Shown in pieces: positions 453-44,683 of a stretch of 64,000 nt of DNA. The notes beneath the pieces were generated by a model. The model was not told where the DNA came from. It worked only from the letters and a program-made list of their open reading frames with translations, and ran no database searches. The stretch's first letter is position 1; each line of letters begins with the position of its first letter. Position numbers and translations under genes: made by a program. The DNA comes from Chloroflexota bacterium (lineage in GTDB: Bacteria; Chloroflexota; Limnocylindria; QHBO01): positions 15,844 to 79,843 of the forward strand of contig JBDTQD010000001.1 in assembly GCA_039932375.1 (NCBI GenBank), in the 5' to 3' direction.

Positions 453-1231
453 AGATCATCGTCTGCCTCAAGCAGGTCCCCGCCACCACGGCGGAGAAGC
501 GCTACACCGCCAACCTACGGCTCGACCGGGCTGCCACCGAGGCGGTGATCAACCCGCTCGACGAATACGCCATTGAGCAGGCGCTTCGGCTCCAGGAGTC
601 CGGCGCGGTCGAGGCGGTCGGCTTCCTGTCGATGGGTCCGGAACAGGCCGCCGAGGCCCTGCGCCGAGCCCTGGCGATGGGCGGCGACCATGCCACCCTG
701 GTCACCGATCCTGCACTCGCCGGCGCCGATGCCTGGGCCACGGCTCGCGTCCTGGCTGTCGCGCTCGACCGGCTCGCCCCCGACGTGACGTTGATGGGCA
801 TGGCCTCCGACGATGCGCGCGGGTCCCTTGTCCCCGGCGCAGTCGCCGCCATGCGTGGCCTCCCACTCCTTTCCTACGGGTCCGAGCTGCACCTCGAGGG
901 CTCGGTGGCGCGGGTCAGGCGCCTGACCGCGGCCGGGTTCGACATCGTCGAGGCGCCGCTACCGGTGGTTGCCAGCGTCACCGATCAGGTGGGCGAGCCG
1001 CGCTACGCGTCGCTCAAGGGGATCATGGCCGCCAAGCGCAAGCCGATGGAGACATGGAGCCTGGCCGACCTGGGGCTCTCGGCGGATGACCTGCACGGCG
1101 CAGCATTGACCCGCGTCGTCGAGGCCCGCAAGCCGGAGGGCAAGCCTCCGACCGAGCGCATCGAAAACGTGAGCCCCGACGAGGCGGTGACGCGGATCGT
1201 CGACTGGCTCGCCGCACGGAAGCTGATCTGA
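449..1231 (+). CDS. etfB: electron transfer flavoprotein beta subunit
   Basis: [19 protein letters not shown]...[14 protein letters not shown] has ETF-beta family signatures. It is 260 aa, and its stop overlaps the etfA start (TGATG). Confidence 0.9.
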
Positions 1232-2211
1232 TGAGCAACGACATCGCCTTCCTGGCCGAGTTCAGCGACGGGGCGCCATCGCGGAGCGCTCTGGAGCTGG
1301 CGGCCGGTGCTGCCGAGCTGGCAGCCGACACTGGCGGTGCTGCCGTCGCGTTGGCCTACGGGCCGGGAGCCGCCGATGCCGCCGCCCTGGGCGCCGCCGG
1401 GGCGGCGCGCGCGATCGTGCTCGGCGATGCTGCTGCACCGGCGATCACCAACGCGGCTGCCGCCGCAGCCGCGATTCAGGACGTGGCGCCGATGCTCGTG
1501 CTGGCACCGGCGACACCGAATGGGCGCGACCTGGCCGCAGCGCTGGTCGGGCTGCTCGGCGTGCCCGCCTTCGGGCCGGTTCGCGCGGTGCGGGTCGAGG
1601 ATGGCCACGTCCGCTCCGAACAGGCGACGCTGCAGGGCACTGTGATCACTGTCAGCGAGCCGATCGAGGGAGCGCCGCAACCGGCGGTCGTCCTCGTCCT
1701 GCCCAGCACCTTCAACCCGATCGAGGAGGGGAGCGGCACGGCGGCGCTATCCCCCGCGCCGGCGAGCGCGGCGGGCGCCTTTGGCACGGCAGCCATCGTC
1801 GAGTCGCATCCCGCCGAGGCCGCGGTCGCCAACCTCGAGGAGGCCAATATCATCATCGCCGGCGGGCGTGGGGTGGGGAGCGCCGATGGATTCGCCGTCC
1901 TGCAGGAGCTGGCGGCCGCGCTCGGGGGTGCCGTCGGGGCCAGTCGCGCGGCGGCTGATGCCGGCTGGGTCCCGTACCAGCTCCAGATCGGCCAGACTGG
2001 CAAGGTCGTCAAGCCGGCCCTGTACGTCGGCTGCGGCATCAGCGGCGCGATCCAGCATCGGGTCGGCATGCAGACCGCCGAGAATGTACTCGCCATCAAC
2101 AAGGACCCTGACGCGCCCATCGGCGAATTCGCCGACCTCTTCGTGGTTGGCGACCTGTTCACAATCGTGCCGAAGCTGACCGCCGAAATCCGGCGGCGAA
2201 AGGGAATCTAG
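1231..2211 (+). CDS. etfA: electron transfer flavoprotein alpha subunit
   Basis: C-terminal FAD-binding region: [11 protein letters not shown]...[45 protein letters not shown]-like ETF-alpha motif. It is 326 aa and sits directly downstream of etfB. Confidence 0.9.
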   Translation: [326 protein letters not shown]

Positions 2212-2216
2212 CACCG

Positions 2217-2789
2217 ATGCGCCACCGCCCAGCCCCCGCCCTCTCGATCGGACTGGCCCTGCTGGCGGTCTCCGCTCTGCCGGCCATTCTCGGCTCGCGT
2301 CGTCGTCGCCGGCCGCGGTCATATGGCAAGGAGCTGCAGGCCTATCGGCGCGACCTCACCGAGCGGACCACCCTGATCGACAGCCATCTGACCACGCTCG
2401 GCGACCTGGTCGACGCGCTGCGCCGCAAAGATGCCGATTCCGACGAGGCGCTCGTCAGGCTCGAGGAGGGGGAGGAGGTGCTCGACCTGGCGGCCGAGGG
2501 TCTGCGCGGGATCCTCGCCCCCGAAGAGCTGCACGCGCTCCACGCCGAGTACGAGGGCAATCTCGAGCGAGCGCTGCGCGGGATCGTCACCGCTGAGCGC
2601 GGGTGCGGGATCACGCGGCTGCCGCACCGCCCGCCCGAGGATGAGGAGCCGTTCATCTACTGGAAGCGCGGCCACCTGAACATCCTGCATGCCCGTCTGC
2701 GGATGCGGGAGCTGGTCGAAGCCCTCTTGACCTGGGAGCCGGGGATGCCGGCCGAGGCGACGGTCGCCGTCCGCTTGAACCGGACCTAG
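2217..2789 (+). CDS. hypothetical protein (no recognisable domain; start uncertain)
   Basis: 190-aa ORF lying same-strand between etfA and nrdR. No motif recognised. A 331-aa ORF lies antisense to it and to nrdR and is probably spurious. Confidence 0.35.
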   Translation: MRHRPAPALSIGLALLAVSALPAILGSRRRRRPRSYGKELQAYRRDLTERTTLIDSHLTTLGDLVDALRRKDADSDEALVRLEEGEEVLDLAAEGLRGILAPEELHALHAEYEGNLERALRGIVTAERGCGITRLPHRPPEDEEPFIYWKRGHLNILHARLRMRELVEALLTWEPGMPAEATVAVRLNRT

Positions 2790-6138: not shown

Positions 6139-6214
6139 GCCCCCGTAGCTCAGCGGATAGAGCGAGGCCGTCCTAAGGCCTGCGTCGGGGGTTCGATTCC
6201 CTCCGGGGGCGCCA
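6139..6214 (+). tRNA. tRNA-Arg (anticodon CCU)
   Basis: Cloverleaf read by hand. Acceptor gcccccg/cgggggc. D-arm gctc-agcggatag-agcg. Anticodon stem aggcc/ggcct with loop gtCCTaa. T-arm gggggttcgattccctcc. Discriminator G, then CCA. Confidence 0.85.
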
Positions 6215-23418: not shown

Positions 23419-23495
23419 GGGCGGCTAGCTCAGTTGGTTAGAGCACTTGCTTGACATGCAAGAGGTCACTGGTTCGAGTCCAGTGTCGCCCACCA
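23419..23495 (+). tRNA. tRNA-Val (anticodon GAC)
   Basis: Acceptor gggcggc/gtcgccc (one G-U pair). D-arm gctc-agttggtta-gagc. Anticodon stem cttgc/gcaag with loop ttGACat. T-arm actgg-ttcgagt-ccagt. Discriminator A, then CCA. Confidence 0.85.
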
Positions 23496-34278: not shown

Positions 34279-36942
34279 ATGCCGCTCGAGACGTATCGGT
34301 CCAAGCGGGACTTCACGCGCACTCCCGAGCCTGAGCCGGGGCCGGTGGAGGAGGGGAGTGGCCGCTTCGTGGTGCAGCGCCATCGGGCCAGCCGCCTGCA
34401 CTACGACCTGCGGCTGGAGATCGGCGGCGTGCTCATCAGCTGGGCAGTGCCGCGCGGCCCGACCCTCGACCCGGGCGAGCGCCGGATGGCGATGCGCACC
34501 GAGGACCACCCGATCGAGTACCTCGACTTCGAGGGGACGATCCCGAAGGGCGAGTACGGCGCGGGGGACATGATCGTGTGGGACTGGGGCACCTTCACCC
34601 CGGAGGAGAACGATGATCCGGCCGCCGCCCTGCGCGCCGGCGAGCTGAAGTTCCGCCTGGACGGTCAGCGGCTGCGGGGCCGCTACACGATCGTCCAGAC
34701 CGGCGGGAAGCGCGATGCCTTCGGGCGCATGTCGGAGCCAGCGCAATGGCTGCTGATCCACAAGCGCGACGACGAGGCGGTCGACGGCTGGGATCCAGAG
34801 GAGCAGGCCACCAGCGTCAAGACCGGTCGCACCAACGACGAGGTGGCCGCGGGCGACGAGCCGCGATTCGTGACCGCCCCGCCGAGCTTGGAGCCAGAGC
34901 CGGACCTCTCCGCCGCCCGCCCCGCTGCGTTGCCCGACTTCATTCCACCGATGCTGGCCATCCTGACCGAGGGCGCCTTCGACGACCCCGACTGGCTGTT
35001 CGAGATCAAGCTGGACGGCTACCGGGTCGAGTCAGTCGTGCGCGACGGGCACGTGCGCCTCTGGACGCGCAACCGGATCGACGCCGCGACCTATTTCCCG
35101 GACCTGGCAGGCGCCCCGGATTGGATCGCGGCGCGCGAGGCGGTCGTCGACGGGGAGGTGGTGGCGCTCGATCCGGACGGCCGCCCCGACTTTTCGTTGC
35201 TGCAGGACCGCACCGGCCTGCGGGGCCTCGAGGCGGCCACCGGTCGCCGCTCCCGGGACGCAGCGCCCCTCTCTGCCGACGAGCGCCGCGCCATCCCGCT
35301 CGCCTACATGGTCTTTGACCTGCTCCACCTTGACGGCAGCTCGCTCCTGGACGTGCCGCTCGAGGAGCGCAAGCGGCTGCTGCATCGGATCATCCGGCCG
35401 CACCCAACCGTGCGCTATGCCTCCCACGTGGTGGGCGACGGCGAAGCGTTCGTGCGGGCAGCCGCGGAAAAGGGCCTGGAGGGGGTCGTCGCCAAGCGAC
35501 GGACCAGCCGCTACGAGCCGGGCAAGCGTTCGCACGACTGGCTGAAGATCAAGCTGCGTCGCGAGCAGGAGCTGGTGGTCGCCGGTTGGCTGCCTGGCAA
35601 GGGGAGCCACAAGGACCTCGGCTCGCTGATCGTCGCCGTGAACTCCGACGGTCGACTGCGCCACGCCGGCCAGGTCGGCAGCGGCATCTCCGCAGCGATG
35701 CGCCGCCAGCTTCTCGAGGCGCTTGAGCCAATCCGACGTGACGCATCGCCGCTCGATCCGGTGCCGCGCCTGACGGAGGCGCAATGGACCGAGCCACGCA
35801 TCGTGATCCGCGCCGAGTTTGCAGAATGGACGTCGGATGGACTCTTGCGCCAGGCAGCATTCAAGGGGATCGAGGTCAGCAAGGATCCTGCTGACGTGGT
35901 TCGCGAGGAGGCGATGCCCATGGCGCGGATCGTGAGCCGCGCACGCGCGACCAAGCCTGCCAAGCCGACGAAGCGATCCGATCCACCGAAGGACGAGGTG
36001 CAAGCAGCGACGGCTGCCGAGCTGGCCGCCCTCGATGCCATGGGCCGCGAGGGGCTATGGCAGGTGGCCGGACACGAGCTGCGCCTGACGAACCTGGAGA
36101 AGGACCTCTTTCCGGCCGACGGCGAGCATCCGCCGCTCACGAAGCGCGACCTGATCCGCCACTACGTTTCGATCGGGCCGATCCTGGTGCCGTATCTCGC
36201 CGGCAGAGGCCTGAACCTGCAGCGCTTCCCCGATGGCATCGGCCACAAGGGCTTCTGGCAGAAGGACCTGCCGGGCCACGCGCCGAGCTGGATTGCCCGC
36301 TGGACATACACCGGAAGCGAGGGAGCGAAGGACTACGTGGTGGTCGACCGCGTCGCGACACTCGCCTGGCTGGCGCAAGAGGCAGCGATCGAGCTGCATC
36401 CGTGGACCTCCCGCACCGATGCTCCCGATCGCCCGACCTACGCGCTGATCGACATCGATCCGGGGACCGATACGACATTCGAGGAGATCCTCGTTCTGGC
36501 GCGGCTGTTTCGAACGGCGCTCGAGCACCTGGGGGTGATCGGGCTGCCGAAGGTAAGCGGCAAGCGCGGCGTCCAGATCTGGGTGCCGGTCAAGCCGAAA
36601 TACGCTTTCGATGCGACCCGCGACTGGGTCGAATCGCTCTCGCGCGCCGTGGGGCAGATGGTGCCCGAGCTGGTCAGCTGGGAGTGGTCCAAGCGCGATC
36701 GGGAAGGGAAGGCGCGGCTCGACTTCACCCAGAACGCGATCAACCGGACGCTGGTCGCCCCATATTCGGCGCGACCCTCGCCGGGGGCGCCGGTCTCAGT
36801 CCCGATTCGTTGGGAGGAGCTCGACGATCCGGAGCTCGGGCCCGATCGATGGACGATCCAAACGCTGCCCGCGCGGCTGTCCGAGGTTGGCGAGCTGTTC
36901 GCGCCGGCGCTCACGCTGGCCCAGGAGCTGCCGCCGCTGTGA
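34279..36942 (+). CDS. ligD: multidomain ATP-dependent DNA ligase LigD (3'-phosphoesterase, ligase, polymerase/primase, in that order)
   Basis: N-terminus GRFVVQRHRASRLHYDLRLE (phosphoesterase domain). FEIKLDGYR (ligase motif I, KxDG). C-terminal polymerase domain (...VIGLPKVSGKRGVQIWVPV...). 887 aa. Confidence 0.9.
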   Translation: MPLETYRSKRDFTRTPEPEPGPVEEGSGRFVVQRHRASRLHYDLRLEIGGVLISWAVPRGPTLDPGERRMAMRTEDHPIEYLDFEGTIPKGEYGAGDMIVWDWGTFTPEENDDPAAALRAGELKFRLDGQRLRGRYTIVQTGGKRDAFGRMSEPAQWLLIHKRDDEAVDGWDPEEQATSVKTGRTNDEVAAGDEPRFVTAPPSLEPEPDLSAARPAALPDFIPPMLAILTEGAFDDPDWLFEIKLDGYRVESVVRDGHVRLWTRNRIDAATYFPDLAGAPDWIAAREAVVDGEVVALDPDGRPDFSLLQDRTGLRGLEAATGRRSRDAAPLSADERRAIPLAYMVFDLLHLDGSSLLDVPLEERKRLLHRIIRPHPTVRYASHVVGDGEAFVRAAAEKGLEGVVAKRRTSRYEPGKRSHDWLKIKLRREQELVVAGWLPGKGSHKDLGSLIVAVNSDGRLRHAGQVGSGISAAMRRQLLEALEPIRRDASPLDPVPRLTEAQWTEPRIVIRAEFAEWTSDGLLRQAAFKGIEVSKDPADVVREEAMPMARIVSRARATKPAKPTKRSDPPKDEVQAATAAELAALDAMGREGLWQVAGHELRLTNLEKDLFPADGEHPPLTKRDLIRHYVSIGPILVPYLAGRGLNLQRFPDGIGHKGFWQKDLPGHAPSWIARWTYTGSEGAKDYVVVDRVATLAWLAQEAAIELHPWTSRTDAPDRPTYALIDIDPGTDTTFEEILVLARLFRTALEHLGVIGLPKVSGKRGVQIWVPVKPKYAFDATRDWVESLSRAVGQMVPELVSWEWSKRDREGKARLDFTQNAINRTLVAPYSARPSPGAPVSVPIRWEELDDPELGPDRWTIQTLPARLSEVGELFAPALTLAQELPPL

Positions 36943-37255
36943 GGCGCACACACAATGGAGCCGCGGGCCGGTCACCGCTCCTGGGAGTCTCAGGATTGGG
37001 TGCCGCCCGCGGCTGATTAAGAACGTTGGAAGCGGGGGAGTGGCCTAGCTGGGCCAGCCGCCGCCGGTGTGTGCGTTGCACATATGCGTCTCCCTCGTTC
37101 AGCCGCCCCGCATGGGACGTGACTGCAGGGAGAAGGTCGTACGGGGAGGTCGCCCCTTCAATGGCCCATCAGTACCGGCACACTTGGAGCCGCCCAGTAC
37201 TTCCGTGGCATGGGTCGGTCAAATGGGGCTTGCCTAGATGGTTATACTCCCGTCA

Positions 37256-38554
37256 ATGCCGCGCACCCGCTTGGCCGCCAAGAGCGCCGAACATGACAGG
37301 GCGCTCGCCCATCAGATTGGCGCACGCCTCCGAGAGGCGCGCAAGCGGAGCGGTCTCACCCAGCAGCAGCTTGCCGGCGACCGATATACCAAGGCCTACG
37401 TGAGCGCCCTCGAGACGGGGATCGCGCGACCCTCGATGGTCGCCCTCAGCTACCTCGCCGAGCGCCTGTCGCTGCCGCCGAGCCACTTCCTTGATGAGCA
37501 GAACCCGACCTGGAGCCGGCTGGCGGTCGACATGACCCTTGCCGCCGGCGACTGGCAGGCCGCGGCCGACGGGTATGCCTCGCTGCTCGACGCCCCGCTC
37601 GACGAGCAGACACGCGCGGAGGTGCTCCGCGGCCAGGCCGAGGCAATGGCGCGCCTGGACAATGGCAAGGACGCGGTCACCGCTGCGGCGGAGGCGGCGC
37701 GCATCTTCGGAGCGCTCGGGCGCATCTCGGACGAAGCGCTGGCGCGTTACTGGCTGGCCTACGGCCTCTACCTCTCCGACCAGGAGGCCGATGCGCAGAG
37801 CCTCCTCTCCTCGCTCCTGGAGCGCGTCCGGGCCGGCTTGAAGGTCGATCCCGACTTCGAGATGCGCCTGCTGATGGCGCTCGCCGCGGTCGCCTCGCGG
37901 AGCGGCGACTACGCGCGTTCGCTCACCTTCCTGGAGACCGCCCGCGGCCTGGCCGACGATCTCGACGATCGGCGGCGGGCGATGTTCCTCTTCAACCTGG
38001 CGATCAGCTACCAGGAGACCGGCGACCTGGAGGCCGCCATTCGGACGGGGACGCAGGGCCTCGCGCTGCTCCGCTCGGCTGGGGCTGTATTCGAATCGGC
38101 CCAGATCGAGAACACGCTGGCGATGGCGTATCTGGCGACCGGCGACACCGAGCGCGCCGCCGAGCTGGCCGACGAGGCGCGTGCCGCATTCGAAGAGGTC
38201 GGTGACGACCGATTCCTGTGCGCCGTGCTCGACACCGATGCACAGGTTGCCCTGGCCCAGGGTCGTGTGCAGGACGCCGCGACCATTGCGCGACGGGCCG
38301 TCGACATGGCGCGCGCCACCGGCAACCGCGGCGTGGAGCTGACCGCCATGTTGACCGAGGCGCGTGCCCTGCGGGCACAGGACGACACGGGCAGCGCCGA
38401 GGCGCGCTACGCCGATGCCGCTGACCTGGCTCGCAGAGGCCACTCGGCGGGGCGCATGCGCGAGGTGCTGCGCGAGTGGGCGGAGCTGCGCGCCACGCTG
38501 GATGATCATCAGGGCGCCTACGAGCTGACCAGGGAGGCACTGGCAGTCAAGTAA
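37256..38554 (+). CDS. XRE-family HTH regulator with C-terminal TPR repeats
   Basis: LREARKRSGLTQQQLAGDRYTKAYVSALETG (helix-turn-helix), followed by about 8 TPR-like repeats. Confidence 0.75.
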   Translation: MPRTRLAAKSAEHDRALAHQIGARLREARKRSGLTQQQLAGDRYTKAYVSALETGIARPSMVALSYLAERLSLPPSHFLDEQNPTWSRLAVDMTLAAGDWQAAADGYASLLDAPLDEQTRAEVLRGQAEAMARLDNGKDAVTAAAEAARIFGALGRISDEALARYWLAYGLYLSDQEADAQSLLSSLLERVRAGLKVDPDFEMRLLMALAAVASRSGDYARSLTFLETARGLADDLDDRRRAMFLFNLAISYQETGDLEAAIRTGTQGLALLRSAGAVFESAQIENTLAMAYLATGDTERAAELADEARAAFEEVGDDRFLCAVLDTDAQVALAQGRVQDAATIARRAVDMARATGNRGVELTAMLTEARALRAQDDTGSAEARYADAADLARRGHSAGRMREVLREWAELRATLDDHQGAYELTREALAVK

Positions 38555-38662
38555 GTGTTGACATGTGCGGTCCGGTGCAGTTAGGCTGGGTCGCAGAGAG
38601 TTGGTCTGGGCACCCGCTCAGGCGCAAAGCCGGACGGGACCAACTCGGACGCCGGGGGAATA

Positions 38663-38693
38663 GGGATCGGAGATCGGGCACAGCTCCGATCCC
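38663..38693. terminator. perfect 10-bp stem / 11-nt loop hairpin between convergent genes
   Basis: gggatcggag-atcgggcacag-ctccgatccc. There is no T-tract, as is common in high-GC genomes. Confidence 0.3.
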
Positions 38694-38707
38694 CATGCCC
38701 GGCCACC

Positions 38708-39298
38708 TCAGGACGCCACCGGTGTTTCGACAAGCGTGAAGCGTCCCATCGCGAACGGAGCAGTCGTGCCCGACAGGTACATGCGCATCGCATAGTCGCC
38801 GGCGCCCCACGCCTTCAGGAGATCAGTGGCCTGCACCTGGTAGGCAATCAGCGGCGAGGTGGCCACGATCCCCTGCCGCGACGGCCGTTGGGCGACCGTC
38901 TCGGCCTCGCCCTCCAGCCGGATGATCTCGACCAGGATGCTGTCGCCTCCAGGCGGGGCCGCCAGCCGCACCGAGTAGGCAAACCGGTCGCCGGCGCGGA
39001 ACCGATCGGTCAGCTGGATCGCCTCGCCGGTCACCGTATCGAGTGCGGTTCCGAAGCGGATCGACAGGGGAGCGGCGCTCGGCAACGGGGTCGGCGTGGC
39101 GATGACCACCTCTGATCCGGCGCGACCCACCAGGAACGCCACCACCGCGACGCCTGCCGCCGCGGCGGCCCAGCCGATCCATCGCGCTGGTGGTCGTGAT
39201 CGTCGGCGCCGCTCACCGGCCAGCGGCATCGCCTGCCTCGGGCGCCCGGTGCGCCACCCCCGACGTGAGCTGCGCAAGCGGTCCATGTCGCGCTTCAC
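38708..39298 (-). CDS. hypothetical membrane-anchored protein
   Basis: Arg-rich N-terminus, TM helix WIGWAAAAAGVAVVAFLVG, then an extracytoplasmic domain. Confidence 0.5.
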   Translation of the reverse strand: MKRDMDRLRSSRRGWRTGRPRQAMPLAGERRRRSRPPARWIGWAAAAAGVAVVAFLVGRAGSEVVIATPTPLPSAAPLSIRFGTALDTVTGEAIQLTDRFRAGDRFAYSVRLAAPPGGDSILVEIIRLEGEAETVAQRPSRQGIVATSPLIAYQVQATDLLKAWGAGDYAMRMYLSGTTAPFAMGRFTLVETPVAS

Positions 39299-39330
39299 TC
39301 TACCGACGCGATTCCAGATACGATGGCGCC

Positions 39331-39864
39331 ATGTCGCGCCGCGTCTTCGATTTCGATACTCCTGACCGATTCGTGGCGGGCGCCCTCGGCGATCCGGGAG
39401 CGAGGAGCTTCTACCTGCAGGCTCGCCAGGGCGGTGCCGTGGTCAGCGTCGGCCTGGAGAAGACGCAGATGGCTGCACTCGCCGGCCGCCTCTCCGAGCT
39501 GCTCGACGCGGTGGAGGGGCTGGCCGAGGAGCTGCCGATCCAGGTCACGCGCGACGACCGCCCGCTCGACGAGCCGACCGTCGAGCTGTTCCGGGTGGGG
39601 GCGATGGCCCTGGCGTGGGATGCGACCACAGCGCGGGTGGTGATCGAAGCGCAGCCGCTCACCGATGACGGAGGATTTGCCGAGGTTTCCGACCAGGCGC
39701 TCGAGGGGCCCGATCTCCTGCGCGTGCGCCTTGAGGCGGCCCATGCCCGTGACTTCATCCGCCGCGCTGCCTCGCTCGTGGCGGCCGGGCGTCCTGCCTG
39801 CCCATTCTGCGGACAGCCGCTCGAGCCGACCGGCCACTTCTGCCCCAAGACGAATCTCAACTGA
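39331..39864 (+). CDS. DUF3090 family protein
   Basis: MSRRVFDFDTPDRFVAGALGDPGARSFYLQARQG...CPFCGQPLEPTGHFCPKTN. C-terminal CxxC...C zinc-ribbon typical of DUF3090. Start is at 39331, not 39190. Confidence 0.75.
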   Translation: MSRRVFDFDTPDRFVAGALGDPGARSFYLQARQGGAVVSVGLEKTQMAALAGRLSELLDAVEGLAEELPIQVTRDDRPLDEPTVELFRVGAMALAWDATTARVVIEAQPLTDDGGFAEVSDQALEGPDLLRVRLEAAHARDFIRRAASLVAAGRPACPFCGQPLEPTGHFCPKTNLN

Positions 39865-40466
39865 TGGGTGGTGCGGCCGGTGAGAACGCCGACCACGCCG
39901 GCTTCGACCCGGCGCTCCGCATCGACTGGCTCGAATCGGCTCAGCTGGGGGATGACCTGCCTGGCCGGCTGGGCCTGACGATCCTGCCTGGCAAGCACGG
40001 CGTCTCGTTTCGCTATCCCGGCCGCGTCTACGACCGCGACGTCACAGAGGATTTCCGCCATCTGCGGGCGGCCGGCGTGGAGCGACTCGTCCTGCTCGTC
40101 GAGGACGCCGAGCTGCGCAGGTGGGGCGACCCGCAGATCGTCGAGCGCGGGGCTGCCGCGGGGGTGACGGTGCTGCGTCACCCGATGGCGGATGGGCGTC
40201 CCCCCGCCTCGATGGGCGAGATGGAGGCGATCCTGGCTGAGATCCGCGAAGGGCGTCGTATACGAAACGTTGCGGTCGCATGCATGGGCGGCGTGGGGAG
40301 GAGCGGGACGGTGGCAGCCTGCGCCCTGGTCCAGGCCGGCATGAGCCCCGAGGACGCGATCGCGACGGTTCGCGCGGTGCGCCATCCGACTGCGGTCGAG
40401 ACGGCCGAGCAGGAGCGCTTCGTTCGCTCGTTCGCCGCCGCGAATCAGGCGGCAGAGCGCCGGTAG
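39864..40466 (+). CDS. Cys-based protein phosphatase (dual-specificity/CDKN3-like, CX5R)
   Basis: VAVACMGGVGRSGTVAACAL is the P-loop C(X)5R with the typical downstream G. The start overlaps the DUF3090 stop (TGATG). Confidence 0.7.
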   Translation: MGGAAGENADHAGFDPALRIDWLESAQLGDDLPGRLGLTILPGKHGVSFRYPGRVYDRDVTEDFRHLRAAGVERLVLLVEDAELRRWGDPQIVERGAAAGVTVLRHPMADGRPPASMGEMEAILAEIREGRRIRNVAVACMGGVGRSGTVAACALVQAGMSPEDAIATVRAVRHPTAVETAEQERFVRSFAAANQAAERR

Positions 40467-41110
40467 AGGGCTACACGCCAAACCCGGCCATTGCGGGCAT
40501 AAGCTGCCGCGAAGCCCCCCGCGCGCATGAGTTGGTCGATCTGCGCCGTGCGATGCACGTAAAAGCTATGGTGCCGGCCCATGAGCCGGCTAAATGTGTT
40601 GAAGATCGACATGGGCGCCCGCATCCACCAGCCGTCGTTCGGGTGCACGAGCCCGATGATCTGCGCGCCAGGAACCATCGCCGCGTGCAGCATGGCGGAC
40701 AGGTGGGGGTAGCAGCAGATCACCCGGTCGAGCGTCACCACGTCGGCGGGAGGCAGCTCAGCGGCAAGCTCGACCACGTCTCCGAAGCGATGCTCGACTC
40801 GATCGGCCAGTCCACGCCGCTCGGCCTCGGCTCGCGCCGCGGCCAGGAATGCCGCCGACGCGTCGACGTCGACCGCGCTGGCGGCTCCGACCTCGAGCAG
40901 CTCGAGGTGGACCATGCCAACTCCGGCGCCGATATCGAGCAGCCGCTTGCCCTCTACGCCTTCTTCGATCAAGGCGTCGAGGAGCTCCTGTGTCGCGCCA
41001 CGCGGGCCATGGCGGCGCCAGTCCTCGAGATCGTGCTCCGCCTCGCGTTTGTCAAAGAGCCGCTCGAAATCCTGGTCGCAGCAAAAGCGGCGTGATGGGT
41101 CGGTCGGCAC
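40445..41110 (-). CDS. class I SAM-dependent methyltransferase (small-molecule type)
   Basis: LLDIGAGVGMVHLELLE is methyltransferase motif I. No DPPY/NPPY DNA-methyltransferase motif is present. Confidence 0.7.
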   Translation of the reverse strand: MPTDPSRRFCCDQDFERLFDKREAEHDLEDWRRHGPRGATQELLDALIEEGVEGKRLLDIGAGVGMVHLELLEVGAASAVDVDASAAFLAAARAEAERRGLADRVEHRFGDVVELAAELPPADVVTLDRVICCYPHLSAMLHAAMVPGAQIIGLVHPNDGWWMRAPMSIFNTFSRLMGRHHSFYVHRTAQIDQLMRAGGFAAAYARNGRVWRVALYRRSAA

Positions 41111-41131
41111 GAGCGGATCATGCCCGTTCCG

Positions 41132-44100
41132 TCAAGCGCGCGTGGCCTGCTCGGCGGCAACCTCGACGAAGCGGCACAACGCATTGGCCAGGCGCATCTG
41201 GAGCGGCGTGTGGACGCGCACCTTCAGCAGGTTGGGCGAGGCGACCACGATCGCCAGGCAGCGACCCCGCGACGTGGCGACGTTCAGCCGATTCAGGGAG
41301 TAGAGGAACTCGATCGAGCGTGGCATCTCGTCCTGCGACGATGTCGCCATCGAGTAGATCGCGACCGCTCCCTGCTGGCCCTGGATCTTGTCGACAGTAG
41401 CAACCCACGGCGCGCGTGGCGCGACGGGGGCGTTGCTGGCGACGCTCCCCAGGCGCTCGACGAGGAGCTCCACCTGGGCGTTGTACGGGGCGATTACCAG
41501 TAGGTCCTCCGGCGTGATCAGGCAGACCTTCCCTTCGTCATTCGTCCACCTCCCGGCCAGCAGGTTCTGGTAGATGTCGACGACCGCCCCGGCCTCCTCC
41601 TCTGACGAGTTGTGGTTGCTGGCGTGGGGGATCGGCACCCATCGGACTCCCGTGCCGGTTATCGGCCCAGCCGCGTTCAATGACTGTCGCGCGGCGCTCG
41701 GCGCCGATTTCAGCTCACCCTTGTAGAAGGCCGCCGAGGTGAAAGCATTGACGTCAGGATGCAGGCGCCAGGTCTGGGCCAGGAAGAGGCCGCGGGCCGG
41801 ATCGATCACCGGCTCGCCGGCGAGCACGTGCTCGAGCGACGAGGCGTCGGCGCCTTCTGGATGAGCGCCCTTCCTTACCTGTGAGAGCTGCTGCGGGTCG
41901 CCCAGCAGGACGAGATTCTTAGCCGCACCGGAGATAGCAAGCACGTTGGCCAGCGACATCTGCCCTGCCTCGTCCACGAACAGCACGTCGACCGCGCCCG
42001 CCATCTCCGGCCGGGCCCAGAGCCACGCCGTCCCCGCCGCGACCTGCGCCTGGCCCGAGAAGAGTGCAGACGCAACCACGCCGTTGTTGTCCGTCCATTC
42101 GTAGCCGGAGTCCTTGGGCGGCTCCTCATCTTTGTCGACCTTGCGGATGGCGGAGACCCGCTGGCCTGTCCTCGCCGCGTGGGCAATCACCTCGTCGAGC
42201 AAGGTCTCGATGGCCCGATGCGTGAAGGCCACGATGCCGACCCGACGACCAGCGCGGACCAGCTCCAGGATCATCTCGGCCCCAGTGAAGGTCTTGCCCG
42301 ATCCAGGCGGTCCCTGGACCGGGAGCACAGTCTCGTCGAGGAGCATCACGAGGCGCTGCGCCGCGTCGCCGCTGGCCTCGCCCGGCAGCGTGAGTGGCGC
42401 ACCCGGTGCCTGCCCGGCGCGCGGGGGCAGCCGCAGGAGGAACTCGCGCGCCGCTCGCCACGGGCCTGGCACGCGCAGCCCGTTCGCCGCGACCCATTCA
42501 CCAAACCGTTCGAGAGCGGCCTTCTGCTCGTCAGCGGTGATCGGCCCCTTGGGAATGAGCGAGGTCGGGTGGGGCCGTGGATTCCTCAGGCCCCACTGCA
42601 GGTCCAGGGTCCCGTGAAGGGCGTCGAGCGCCATGATCTTTCCCGCCCCATGCGTCGTCGCGGGATCGACCGGATGGTCGCCCACCTTGAGCCGATACGG
42701 CTGTTCGGGGTCGAAGCGATATCGATGCCGTACCGACTGTCTCGGCCGATCGATCTCGACCATCCACTCGAGCTGCCCGATCGCCTCGTCATCCTCGGCC
42801 AGCTGCTCGTCGGACTGGCGGCAGCGCGAATAGAAAGACCACCAGTCGACATTTTCCTCGCGACGGTGCCACTCCAGCAGGTCGGCAAGCACGCGAAGGA
42901 CAGGGGCATCCGGATCCGATGGATCCGAGGCGCGCAGACGATCCGCAAGGTCGCGCCGTCGCCGGTCCTCGACGGTGAGCTCTCGCTCGAGCTCCTCTAC
43001 CTTGGCAACCGGCCGTGGGACCGCCTCACCGGTCTTTGCCGCGAGCTCGTTGCGCCGCTCCTCGAGCCAGGTCCGCAGCTCGGCGTTCGAACGGCAATCG
43101 TCCCGGTTGTAGTCGTGGATCTCATCGAGAATGGATTGGTTGGGCGCCCCCTCGCTGACCGACTGGATGTAGGCCTCGTACGCCACCACCGACGAGCCTG
43201 CGTCCTTGAGCGGCACGTCGCGGACGAGCCGGTACAGCACCTCGAGACTCTTGATCGAGTAGTTCGAAATGCCGATGCGGAGGGCCTGCCGAACGACGGA
43301 GAAAAGGTCGATGAACACCTCGCCGCGAAGGATCCGATCGACCTCCACCTCGCGCGTGGAGTGGCGGGTGGCGAGCATTCCGATGCGGCCACGCTCGTAC
43401 GAGGCGTAGTGGTAAACGTGCATCGTCGGGTCGACGCGCCATCGGTTCATGACGAAGTCGATGAAGCCCTCGAAGGCGACCTTCTCCTCGGCCCGGCTGT
43501 GTCCCCACCAGGTGTGGAAGGTCGGTGTGCCCGCGTCGATCAGTACCATGGGGTCCCAGACGCCGAACAGGTACTCGAGCCCGTCATCCTCGGCGAACGG
43601 GTCACCCTCCATGTCGAAGAAGAGGTCGCCCGCCGCCGGCTCTGGCAGCGCGCCGAGACCACGGTTCTCTTCGACTCCCAGGAACTCGTAGCGGGGCTGA
43701 GCCAATCCCCGGGACTCGTGCTGCAGGCGCGCCTGCTGATGCAGGTTGCCGAGCACCACGTCGCTCAGATTCGGAACGACCGGCAGCATCGGACCGAGGG
43801 TGGCCAGGGCAGTGAAGGTCCCGATCCCGGCATCGGTCAGGCGGCGGGCGGCATCTGAGCGCATGCCGGCCACCAGGCTCAGATGGTCAGCCTCGGTGCG
43901 CAGGTTGGAGCAGTACGCACTCCAGCGACAGACGCCGCAGTGGCCCACCGGCGGCGGCGTGACGGCGAGCGGGTAGATGAGAGGCTCGTCGGCGGCAACC
44001 GCGGTCATGAAGCGAGCCTTGACGCTGCGGAAGTAGGCCAGGTAGTCGTCCAGCCGATGCGAATCGACGCGGTGGCCGCTGCCGCCGAGCGCCACATGCA

Positions 44101-44683
44101 TCTTCTCCGGCATGCGCCCCTGCTCGCGGGCAAGCAGATCGGAATAGACGCACATCTGCAGCAGCGCGCCGCCCTTGACGTGGCGCGCCAGCTTGGTGTC
44201 CGCGACCTCGTAGTGATAGTCGCCAAGGTCGCTCCCCGCGCCTGGCCCGTCAATTCGGAGAAGGAAGTCGGCATATCCGAGCCATGCACCGTCGAAGAGT
44301 GTTGCCTGGTAGATAACATCGGCGCCGTCGTGCATCCGTTCGCGCGTCAGCGCCGCGTCAAGCTCGACCTCCGCAAGCGTGCTGCGGCCTGGATCCGGCC
44401 ATCGGTCGATCCGACCGTCGACCACGGTCCGCCCCTCTTCCCGGAGGTAGGCAAGGTATCGCTCCTCGTGCTCCAGGCCGCGACGCTGCAGGACATCGAG
44501 CTCGGGATCGACGCGATCCGGCCTCTCGAGGTCTGTGACGAACACGGCGCGCTCGAGAGTGGTCAGGTGCTCGCATTCGAGGTAGCCGACGAGGTCGCTG
44601 GCGCTATAGACCCTGGTGCCGTCGAGGTCCTGCATGCTGCCTCGAAGCCTAGCCCGCTCGGCTGGGCGACGAGCGAAATGCAC
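41132..44683 (-). CDS. 1183-aa fusion protein: Cas4/RecB-like PD-(D/E)xK nuclease with Fe-S Cys cluster (TM0106-family N-terminus), RNase H-like 3'-5' exonuclease-like domain, and Upf1/Dna2-type SF1B helicase
   Basis: Nuclease domain: Cys37 (YLECEH) plus HCGVCRWSAYC (C-x2-C-x5-C, aa 249-259), EVADTK, LQMCVY (QxxxY). Exonuclease-like domain: LFFDMEGDP, YHYASYE. Helicase motifs: GPPGSGKT (aa 791-798, nt 42290-42313), VLFVDEAGQ, LLGDPQQL, TVDKIQGQQ, NRLNVATSRGR. Confidence 0.85.
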   Translation of the reverse strand: MHFARRPAERARLRGSMQDLDGTRVYSASDLVGYLECEHLTTLERAVFVTDLERPDRVDPELDVLQRRGLEHEERYLAYLREEGRTVVDGRIDRWPDPGRSTLAEVELDAALTRERMHDGADVIYQATLFDGAWLGYADFLLRIDGPGAGSDLGDYHYEVADTKLARHVKGGALLQMCVYSDLLAREQGRMPEKMHVALGGSGHRVDSHRLDDYLAYFRSVKARFMTAVAADEPLIYPLAVTPPPVGHCGVCRWSAYCSNLRTEADHLSLVAGMRSDAARRLTDAGIGTFTALATLGPMLPVVPNLSDVVLGNLHQQARLQHESRGLAQPRYEFLGVEENRGLGALPEPAAGDLFFDMEGDPFAEDDGLEYLFGVWDPMVLIDAGTPTFHTWWGHSRAEEKVAFEGFIDFVMNRWRVDPTMHVYHYASYERGRIGMLATRHSTREVEVDRILRGEVFIDLFSVVRQALRIGISNYSIKSLEVLYRLVRDVPLKDAGSSVVAYEAYIQSVSEGAPNQSILDEIHDYNRDDCRSNAELRTWLEERRNELAAKTGEAVPRPVAKVEELERELTVEDRRRRDLADRLRASDPSDPDAPVLRVLADLLEWHRREENVDWWSFYSRCRQSDEQLAEDDEAIGQLEWMVEIDRPRQSVRHRYRFDPEQPYRLKVGDHPVDPATTHGAGKIMALDALHGTLDLQWGLRNPRPHPTSLIPKGPITADEQKAALERFGEWVAANGLRVPGPWRAAREFLLRLPPRAGQAPGAPLTLPGEASGDAAQRLVMLLDETVLPVQGPPGSGKTFTGAEMILELVRAGRRVGIVAFTHRAIETLLDEVIAHAARTGQRVSAIRKVDKDEEPPKDSGYEWTDNNGVVASALFSGQAQVAAGTAWLWARPEMAGAVDVLFVDEAGQMSLANVLAISGAAKNLVLLGDPQQLSQVRKGAHPEGADASSLEHVLAGEPVIDPARGLFLAQTWRLHPDVNAFTSAAFYKGELKSAPSAARQSLNAAGPITGTGVRWVPIPHASNHNSSEEEAGAVVDIYQNLLAGRWTNDEGKVCLITPEDLLVIAPYNAQVELLVERLGSVASNAPVAPRAPWVATVDKIQGQQGAVAIYSMATSSQDEMPRSIEFLYSLNRLNVATSRGRCLAIVVASPNLLKVRVHTPLQMRLANALCRFVEVAAEQATRA

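Follow-up and report, generated by a model that had tools for sequence, protein, structure and literature searches.

A DUF3090 gene and a KAP/CDKN3-like cysteine phosphatase gene form a conserved, overlapping pair in Candidatus Limnocylindria (Chloroflexota)

Introduction

In Actinobacteria, the genes encoding a histidine phosphatase of the MSMEG_4193 type, a DUF3090 protein and an SCO1664 protein make up a conserved "signature" cassette, which is represented in Mycobacterium tuberculosis by Rv2135c-Rv2134c-Rv2133c. Here, we analyzed a 64-kb stretch of contig JBDTQD010000001.1 from a Chloroflexota bacterium (the whole stretch is referred to as the window), in which a DUF3090 gene overlaps the gene for a Cys-based phosphatase resembling human KAP/CDKN3, and we compared this gene pair with the canonical cassette. 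SCO1664 has been noted for its linkage to mshC, and the cassette is located near mshC in Streptomyces and its relatives (PMC4255298). Rv2135c, the histidine-phosphatase member in M. tuberculosis, is the only cassette member that has been assayed, and it was found to act as an acid phosphatase on p-nitrophenyl phosphate (pNPP) and to have no mutase activity (PMC3866925). Our literature search found no functional papers on Rv2134c, Rv2133c or SCO1664, and DUF3090 appeared in the searched literature in two lists only.

Results

An earlier account of this locus, made from the letters of the window alone (the sequence-only reading), had named the upstream gene as DUF3090 and the product of the downstream gene as a Cys-based, CDKN3-like phosphatase, and had proposed profile searches with PF11290, DSPc and CDKN3 as a check. 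The DUF3090 protein matched PF11290 over positions 1-170 of the 170 in the profile (E 3.9e-58, 196.5 bits against a cutoff of 27) and TIGR03847 with 209.3 bits (cutoff 117.25). The 200-aa phosphatase scored above the Pfam gathering cutoffs of PTP-SAK (43.2 bits, cutoff 27), CDKN3 (42.7, cutoff 20.7) and Tc-R-P (42.4, cutoff 27), so that both names stand; with respect to the two phosphatase profiles proposed, CDKN3 was positive and DSPc stayed below its cutoff (21.4 against 33.5), as did Y_phosphatase (19.0 against 20.9). A search of the NCBIfam profiles with the phosphatase gave no match. The best solved relative of the phosphatase was human KAP/CDKN3 (1fpz, E 1.8e-13, residues 19-191 aligned with 28-193), followed by the small archaeal protein tyrosine phosphatases (PTPs), of which SsoPTP (2i6i) matched at E 4.6e-12. 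The phosphatase carries NVAVACMGGVGRSGT, and alignment with these structures shows that its putative catalytic set of Cys, Arg, Asp and Gln is intact. The C-terminus of the DUF3090 protein is ACPFCGQPLEPTGHFCPKTNLN, and the CxxC...HxC motif in this part of the family has been recorded before (PMC9425974); the four residues C157, C160, H169 and C171 were invariant in 78/78 homologues of a diverse DUF3090 alignment that reaches down to 32% identity. The sequence at 39859-39868 reads ...AAC TGA TGG..., with the ATG of the phosphatase gene at 39864, and this TGATG overlap bears out the translational coupling that had been claimed. The coordinates of these and the neighboring features are listed in Table 1.

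Table 1. Features of the DUF3090-phosphatase locus and its surroundings, in window coordinates.
Feature	Position	Strand	Size or basis
DUF3090/TIGR03847 gene	39331..39864	+	177 aa
CCHC metal-binding motif C157-x2-C160 ... H169-x-C171 (CPFCGQPLEPTGHFC)	39799..39843	+	alignment
TGATG stop/start overlap, one base common to the TGA stop and the ATG	39862..39866	+	direct reading
KAP/CDKN3-like Cys-based phosphatase gene	39864..40466	+	200 aa; Pfam and PDB matches
Putative general-acid Asp110 in HPMADG	40191..40193	+	aligned to HPIADGGTP of KAP
Catalytic P-loop C140-MGGVG-R146-S	40281..40304	+	aligned to KAP, SsoPTP
Q-loop AVETAEQ	40392..40412	+	aligned to AIQTIKQ of KAP, AVQTYEQ of SsoPTP
LigD, full-length (phosphoesterase, ligase and primase-polymerase domains)	34279-36942	+	
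HTH_31+TPR regulator	37238-38554	+	
Basic hypothetical protein, isoelectric point (pI) 11.3, hydrophobic, probably membrane-spanning stretch near N-terminus	38708..39298	-	divergent
S-adenosylmethionine (SAM)-dependent methyltransferase	40445-41110	-	convergent; 3' end overlaps phosphatase 3' end by 22 nt
RNase_H_2-superfamily (RecB-like) nuclease + superfamily 1 (SF1) helicase (AAA_11, AAA_12, AAA_30)	41132-44683	-	1183 aa

The sequence-only reading had placed the window in Actinobacteria and had described DUF3090 as restricted to high-GC Gram-positives. However, proteins identical to both products have been deposited from metagenome-assembled genomes (MAGs) labelled Chloroflexota (P0001, P0121), and close relatives of both carry the MAG label Candidatus Limnocylindria, a class of soil bacteria within Chloroflexota, to which the source organism belongs. 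Since the window and its relatives are from Chloroflexota, and DUF3090 is present in Limnocylindria genomes, the family is not confined to high-GC Gram-positives.

In order to survey the pair within this class, one genome per GTDB species was scanned with the DUF3090 protein of the window, which yielded 80 DUF3090 loci (54-85% identical to the window protein), nearly all labelled Limnocylindria, Chloroflexota or Chloroflexia. Eight contigs (L014, L018, L038, L041, L053, L060, L079 and L081) bear the MAG labels Methylomirabilota, Angelobacter, Binatia or Steroidobacteraceae; their gene order (HTH-TPR, hypothetical protein, DUF3090, phosphatase) and their identities are Limnocylindria-like, and they are probably mis-binned. 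A phosphatase homologue (54-81% identity) was found directly downstream of DUF3090 on the same strand in 77 of the 79 testable loci; the contig of the 80th locus (L056) ends just past DUF3090. At these loci the homology to the phosphatase always started no more than ~110 nt from the DUF3090 stop, and most had an in-frame start either overlapping this stop (TGATG) or at most 5 nt beyond it (TAGGTG, TGAGTG), a spacing that is a best case, biased small, because the start codon nearest the stop was chosen. The genes beyond the phosphatase vary among the loci while the phosphatase stays. The P-loop motif ACMGG[VI]GR[ST] was present in 75/77 of the phosphatase orthologues, the DG motif was kept across them, and AVET..Q was at least 95% conserved, indicating that the phosphatase is under purifying selection. 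When the Tsukamurella proteins were used as tblastn queries (E <= 0.01), neither a histidine phosphatase nor SCO1664 was detected anywhere in the window, nor in the +-8 kb around DUF3090 at the 80 loci.

Database searches with the phosphatase returned 1389 homologues; the best 120 of these were 72-100% identical, and the named organisms among those 120 were all Limnocylindria or Chloroflexota. The nearest plasmid homologues (27-40% identity) come from Proteobacteria, Deinococcus and Cyanobacteria and adjoin transposases, nucleases, WYL or AAA genes, and three of them form the C-terminal portion of ADP-ribosylglycohydrolase fusion proteins. Because such distant homologues lie beside unrelated genes, the phosphatase family outside the orthologous group is not tied to DUF3090. 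A CX5R protein commonly found beside unrelated genes had been named in advance as a sign of chance adjacency, and this applies to the distant homologues but not to the orthologues (at least 54% identity), which always adjoin DUF3090.

The three-gene cassette itself, which the sequence-only reading had described, is real. By annotation, Tsukamurella tyrosinosolvens carries the genes for the histidine phosphatase, DUF3090 and SCO1664 in that order, abutting or overlapping, with uppP upstream and mshC downstream, and in Nonomuraea the three genes follow one another in that order too; matches of the SCO1664 proteins to PI3_PI4_kinase are weak. Representatives of nine other DUF3090 clusters were read on their contigs (P0241 was left out, as it belongs to the phosphatase-linked clade). 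The full trio was present in four (P0242, P0250, P0312 and P0422), while P0243 has the trio with SCO1664 cut at the contig end, P0303 has both partners cut at contig ends, and P0248 has the histidine phosphatase with its downstream side cut off. The other two have no histidine phosphatase upstream and are followed by a GNAT gene (P0254) or a peptidase C26/GATase gene (P0249).

Gene contexts were also counted in a metagenome set of 80 further DUF3090 loci. Both partners were present at 43/80; SCO1664 was present at 11 with more than 700 nt of upstream sequence and no histidine phosphatase, and at 9 with too little upstream sequence to judge; a histidine phosphatase was present at 6 with downstream sequence too short to judge; and neither partner was seen at 9, whose contigs are cut on at least one side. 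One locus was of the Limnocylindria type with the Cys phosphatase (L159) and one had a subtilase gene downstream (L171). Hence the histidine phosphatase is missing, and unreplaced, in 11/54 of the SCO1664-linked loci with enough upstream sequence. At these 11 loci (L105, L106, L108, L110, L115, L124, L125, L127, L130, L166 and L169), the upstream gene, on the same strand, encodes a molybdopterin oxidoreductase of ~520-555 aa whose N-terminal region is hydrophobic (PF00174 was checked in L108), and the DUF3090 protein ends in CPRRNGHYVN or similar. The link between DUF3090 and SCO1664 is thus the most constant of the cassette, and the histidine phosphatase is a frequent but not an obligatory member. 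Downstream of DUF3090s without the trio we observed genes for GNAT (L096:831-1313), peptidase C26/GATase after a 9-nt gap (L097:947-1726) and subtilase (L171:1970-3205), which indicates that several non-canonical DUF3090 contexts exist.

Two side observations concern these sets. In L119, a canonical trio has, ~0.6 kb ahead of its histidine phosphatase gene, a divergent gene (1110-2708, minus strand) encoding a 532-aa fusion of an ADP-ribosylglycohydrolase with a PTP-SAK/Tc-R-P phosphatase, 40% identical to the window phosphatase; this was seen at 1/80 loci and may reflect either chance or another association of DUF3090 with a phosphatase that arose independently. Only two DUF3090 genes were found on "plasmid" records, and both records are pieces of actinobacterial chromosomes: L086 (Tsukamurella NZ_LR134462.1) is a 33.5-kb piece with the core chromosomal genes uppP, dapA and mshC, and L087 (Nonomuraea NZ_LT559118.1) is an 11.85-Mb replicon, so that the core genes of the one and the size of the other mark them as chromosome sequences filed as plasmids.

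The DUF3090 of the window is ~50% identical to that of Tsukamurella, and 50 positions are at least 90% conserved in the phosphatase-linked and the SCO1664-linked sets alike. Consistent differences between the two contexts are few and lie chiefly in the C-terminal tail, which is NG[QH]LN or TNLN in the phosphatase-linked proteins and NGYRR in canonical ones. The Tyr of NGYRR was considered as a phospho-site common to SCO1664 and the phosphatases, and was rejected because trio-linked DUF3090s without this Tyr exist (P0242, NGHLT; P0250, NGHVN; P0303, CPRMN).

To trace the origin of the pairing, a neighbor-joining tree of 172 DUF3090 sequences was built, which is distance-based and midpoint-rooted, without resampling support. 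The phosphatase-linked DUF3090s formed one clade of 82 tips, within which the two phosphatase-less loci (L022 and L037) and the truncated L056 were nested, and its sister was the trio-bearing P0242; the pairing with the phosphatase therefore arose once. The nearest placeable out-group of the Limnocylindria clade is actinobacterial. Proteins from Mycobacteriales and Frankiales MAGs share 69-79% identity with the SCO1664 protein beside P0242 (among the best 120 of >8000 matches), and the best 120 of the >8000 matches are 69-100% identical, with all named organisms actinobacterial, a result that cannot show absence in Limnocylindria. As judged from these sequences, the ancestor of the pairing was probably trio-bearing and of the actinobacterial type; since the tree is an unsupported, midpoint-rooted distance tree, the direction of any transfer is tentative.

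We found no solved structure related to DUF3090 by sequence, and the fold was predicted with AlphaFold. An alignment of 18 sequences with 76-87% identity gave a model with a pLDDT of only 41, and the diverse 78-sequence alignment was needed to reach a pLDDT of 91.4 and a pTM of 0.83. In this model, four strands and a helix are followed by an acidic linker, three to four further strands with a helix, and a CCHC knuckle, so that DUF3090 is predicted to be a PUR-alpha/PC4-like double beta-beta-beta-beta-alpha repeat with a C-terminal zinc knuckle, and the model would fall within the PC4-like/PUR fold, with TM-scores of 0.37-0.55 against PUR-alpha. The internal repeat is weak at the sequence level (hhalign probability 8.7%), with the aligned strand and helix in structural register. 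Proteins of the PC4-like fold class bind single-stranded nucleic acids, and a review of the class does not include DUF3090 (PMC7549692); the predicted assignment of DUF3090 to this fold was not found elsewhere in the searched literature. Family members have a median pI of 4.8, most of the acidic charge lying in the linker and one loop, which counts against, without excluding, generic nucleic-acid binding. On this model DUF3090 is most likely a binding module and not an enzyme, and we treat the fold as a lead.

Upstream of the pair, the LigD/HTH-TPR/hypothetical block was syntenic in almost all 80 Limnocylindria loci. The hypothetical protein (38708-39298) had no Pfam match; its homologues (34-70% identity), called at 173-196 aa on other contigs, lie upstream in most Limnocylindria loci, and it is a conserved neighbor that need not be part of the DUF3090-phosphatase unit. 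On the other side, the methyltransferase was found only in the closest relatives (L001-L015) and not in more distant Limnocylindria loci, and related loci often lack the nuclease-helicase, whose region is called as two genes on the related contig L001. The helicase part of this protein matched the PADLOC model MkoA (3e-37), with no other Mokosh component seen, and the PADLOC defence-system models gave no match for DUF3090 or the phosphatase. A consensus scan of 38500-41300 found no promoter or terminator, and the only Rfam/ARAGORN matches in the 64 kb were tRNA-Arg(CCT) at 6139-6214 and tRNA-Val(GAC) at 23419-23495, both on the plus strand.

Discussion

Taken together, we slightly favor the reading that the DUF3090 and phosphatase genes constitute a lineage-specific bicistronic operon of Ca. 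Limnocylindria whose two products act together. The Limnocylindria DUF3090 clade would descend from a lineage with the order histidine phosphatase, DUF3090, SCO1664 (PI3/4-kinase-like); at the base of the clade, DUF3090 would have parted from both partners and been joined in a bicistron with the KAP/CDKN3-like phosphatase, and the pair would have been retained since. Made together and acting together, DUF3090 may be a subunit that targets or regulates the phosphatase, or may itself be the phospho-substrate of this enzyme, and the Cys phosphatase may supply the dephosphorylation of whatever DUF3090 binds. Several points weigh against this reading. L022 and L037 keep DUF3090 and have other genes in the place of the phosphatase, and trio-less DUF3090 lineages elsewhere are followed by unrelated genes (GNAT, peptidase C26, subtilase). 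The spacing between the paired genes is, as stated, a best case; the LigD/HTH-TPR/hypothetical block is as well conserved as the pair; and given the single origin, the wide distribution of the pair could be due to inheritance alone. Moreover, an interaction between the two proteins is something we infer. The reading of a joint operon and the three alternatives below overlap and are not mutually exclusive.

The sequence-only reading was right that DUF3090 is here tightly partnered by a phosphatase of different chemistry, and it went on to propose that the cassette tolerates a swap of phosphatase class. In this case of non-orthologous displacement, the cassette would have a single phosphorylated substrate and the Cys phosphatase would simply stand in for the histidine phosphatase, which we consider possible but doubtful. 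Both enzymes are phosphatases tightly linked to DUF3090, the core of DUF3090 is the same in both contexts, Rv2135c acts on pNPP as a phosphatase and not as a mutase (PMC3866925), and the ADP-ribosylglycohydrolase-phosphatase fusion of L119 lies beside a canonical trio. However, the Cys phosphatase does not occupy the partner slot that had been ascribed to it: it sits downstream, in the slot of SCO1664, whereas the histidine phosphatase slot is upstream. Nor was the cassette kept with one part exchanged, as had been supposed; SCO1664, from which the phospho-substrate would presumably come, is locally absent as well, and since both partners are gone from the neighborhood, the cassette appears dismantled. 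The 11/54 SCO1664-linked loci with neither a histidine phosphatase nor a substitute further indicate that a neighboring phosphatase is not obligatory, and because the pairing is of single origin, there is no independent recurrence to support swap tolerance. With the wrong slot, the kinase-like partner missing, the histidine phosphatase dispensable in one fifth of the loci and no recurrence, the swap becomes a weaker special case of the operon reading.

An adjacency fixed once in the Limnocylindria ancestor and since passed on as plain synteny, with the two products working independently, would also fit the single origin, the equal synteny of the LigD, HTH-TPR and hypothetical neighbors, the two species with an intact DUF3090 and no phosphatase, the distant phosphatase homologues in unrelated and often mobile contexts, and the assorted neighbors of trio-less DUF3090s elsewhere. 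Such a frozen accident is nevertheless unlikely, as the same strand and the overlap or gap of at most 5 nt were retained down to 54% protein identity, the phosphatase persisted through the turnover of the genes downstream of it, and its catalytic motif is under clear purifying selection. The third alternative is an end-processing module linked to nucleic acids or ADP-ribose. In it, DUF3090 would hold single-stranded nucleic acid while the phosphatase takes off a terminal phosphate or an ADP-ribose-phosphate, perhaps together with LigD and the nuclease-helicase close by. Such a module is suggested by the predicted DUF3090 fold, by the fusion of the phosphatase domain to ADP-ribosylglycohydrolase in its closest relatives outside the orthologous group and by the position of LigD upstream and the RecB-like nuclease/SF1 helicase downstream, but is speculative and improbable, given that the family median pI of 4.8 is unlike that of typical single-stranded DNA or RNA binders, the TM-scores against PUR-alpha reach only 0.37-0.55, LigD is two genes off with an oppositely oriented gene between, the helicase is on the opposite strand and absent from many loci, and neither protein matches the PADLOC library.

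The protein families involved are known, and family databases already list the cassette; what is new is a variant of the cassette in a new phylum, together with the predicted fold. Beyond correcting the taxonomic range of DUF3090, this variant shows that the protein can persist with an unaltered core where neither SCO1664 nor a histidine phosphatase is nearby, and the DUF3090-phosphatase pair offers a simpler two-protein system for biochemistry. The variant and the predicted PUR/PC4-like fold together narrow the focus to binding and to dephosphorylation with and without DUF3090. It is conceivable, although we regard it as a long shot, that DUF3090 is a PUR/PC4-like zinc-knuckle substrate presenter, that the essential activity of its partners is phosphate removal, and that the Limnocylindria pair, which has no kinase, is the minimal form of the system. 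If this were true, the pair would give a clue to what the whole actinobacterial Rv2133c-Rv2135c cassette acts on, namely a phospho-ligand bound by DUF3090; this could be, for example, the end of a nucleic acid, an ADP-ribose-phosphate, or a derivative of inositol phosphate with ties to the metabolism of mycothiol or phosphoinositides. As a lead on a cassette that is also carried by M. tuberculosis, the finding is modest: it is not a mechanism, and function is at the level of inference.

The closest described system is the actinobacterial cassette (TIGR03847/TIGR03843), with which the Limnocylindria locus shares a clearly orthologous DUF3090 and a tightly linked phosphatase gene, and from which it differs in its Cys-based, downstream phosphatase, in the lack of a local histidine phosphatase or SCO1664, and in its Chloroflexota host. 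The predicted fold of DUF3090 resembles PUR-alpha and PC4-like proteins (Whirly, MRP1/2), to which it has no detectable sequence similarity, and DUF3090 differs from them in being acidic overall and in its additional CCHC zinc knuckle. The phosphatase is homologous to KAP/CDKN3 over nearly its full length, with Cys140, Asp110, the P-loop Arg and the Q-loop aligned, whereas the residue preceding its catalytic Cys is Ala and not the usual His, and it is bacterial, without a CDK substrate, and translationally coupled to DUF3090. The archaeal small PTPs (SsoPTP 2i6i; Thermococcus PTP 5z59) share the same core, the C-x5-R-[ST]-G-T P-loop and AV(Q/E)T..Q; in contrast to them, the window phosphatase has ~60 extra KAP-type N-terminal residues with a conserved LPGK.G.S.RYPGR. 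Finally, the ADP-ribosylglycohydrolase-phosphatase fusions and the stand-alone "CDKN3 family" proteins are its closest non-orthologous relatives (34-40% identity) and match the same Pfam models, but none of them is coupled to DUF3090, bar the one divergent neighbor in L119.

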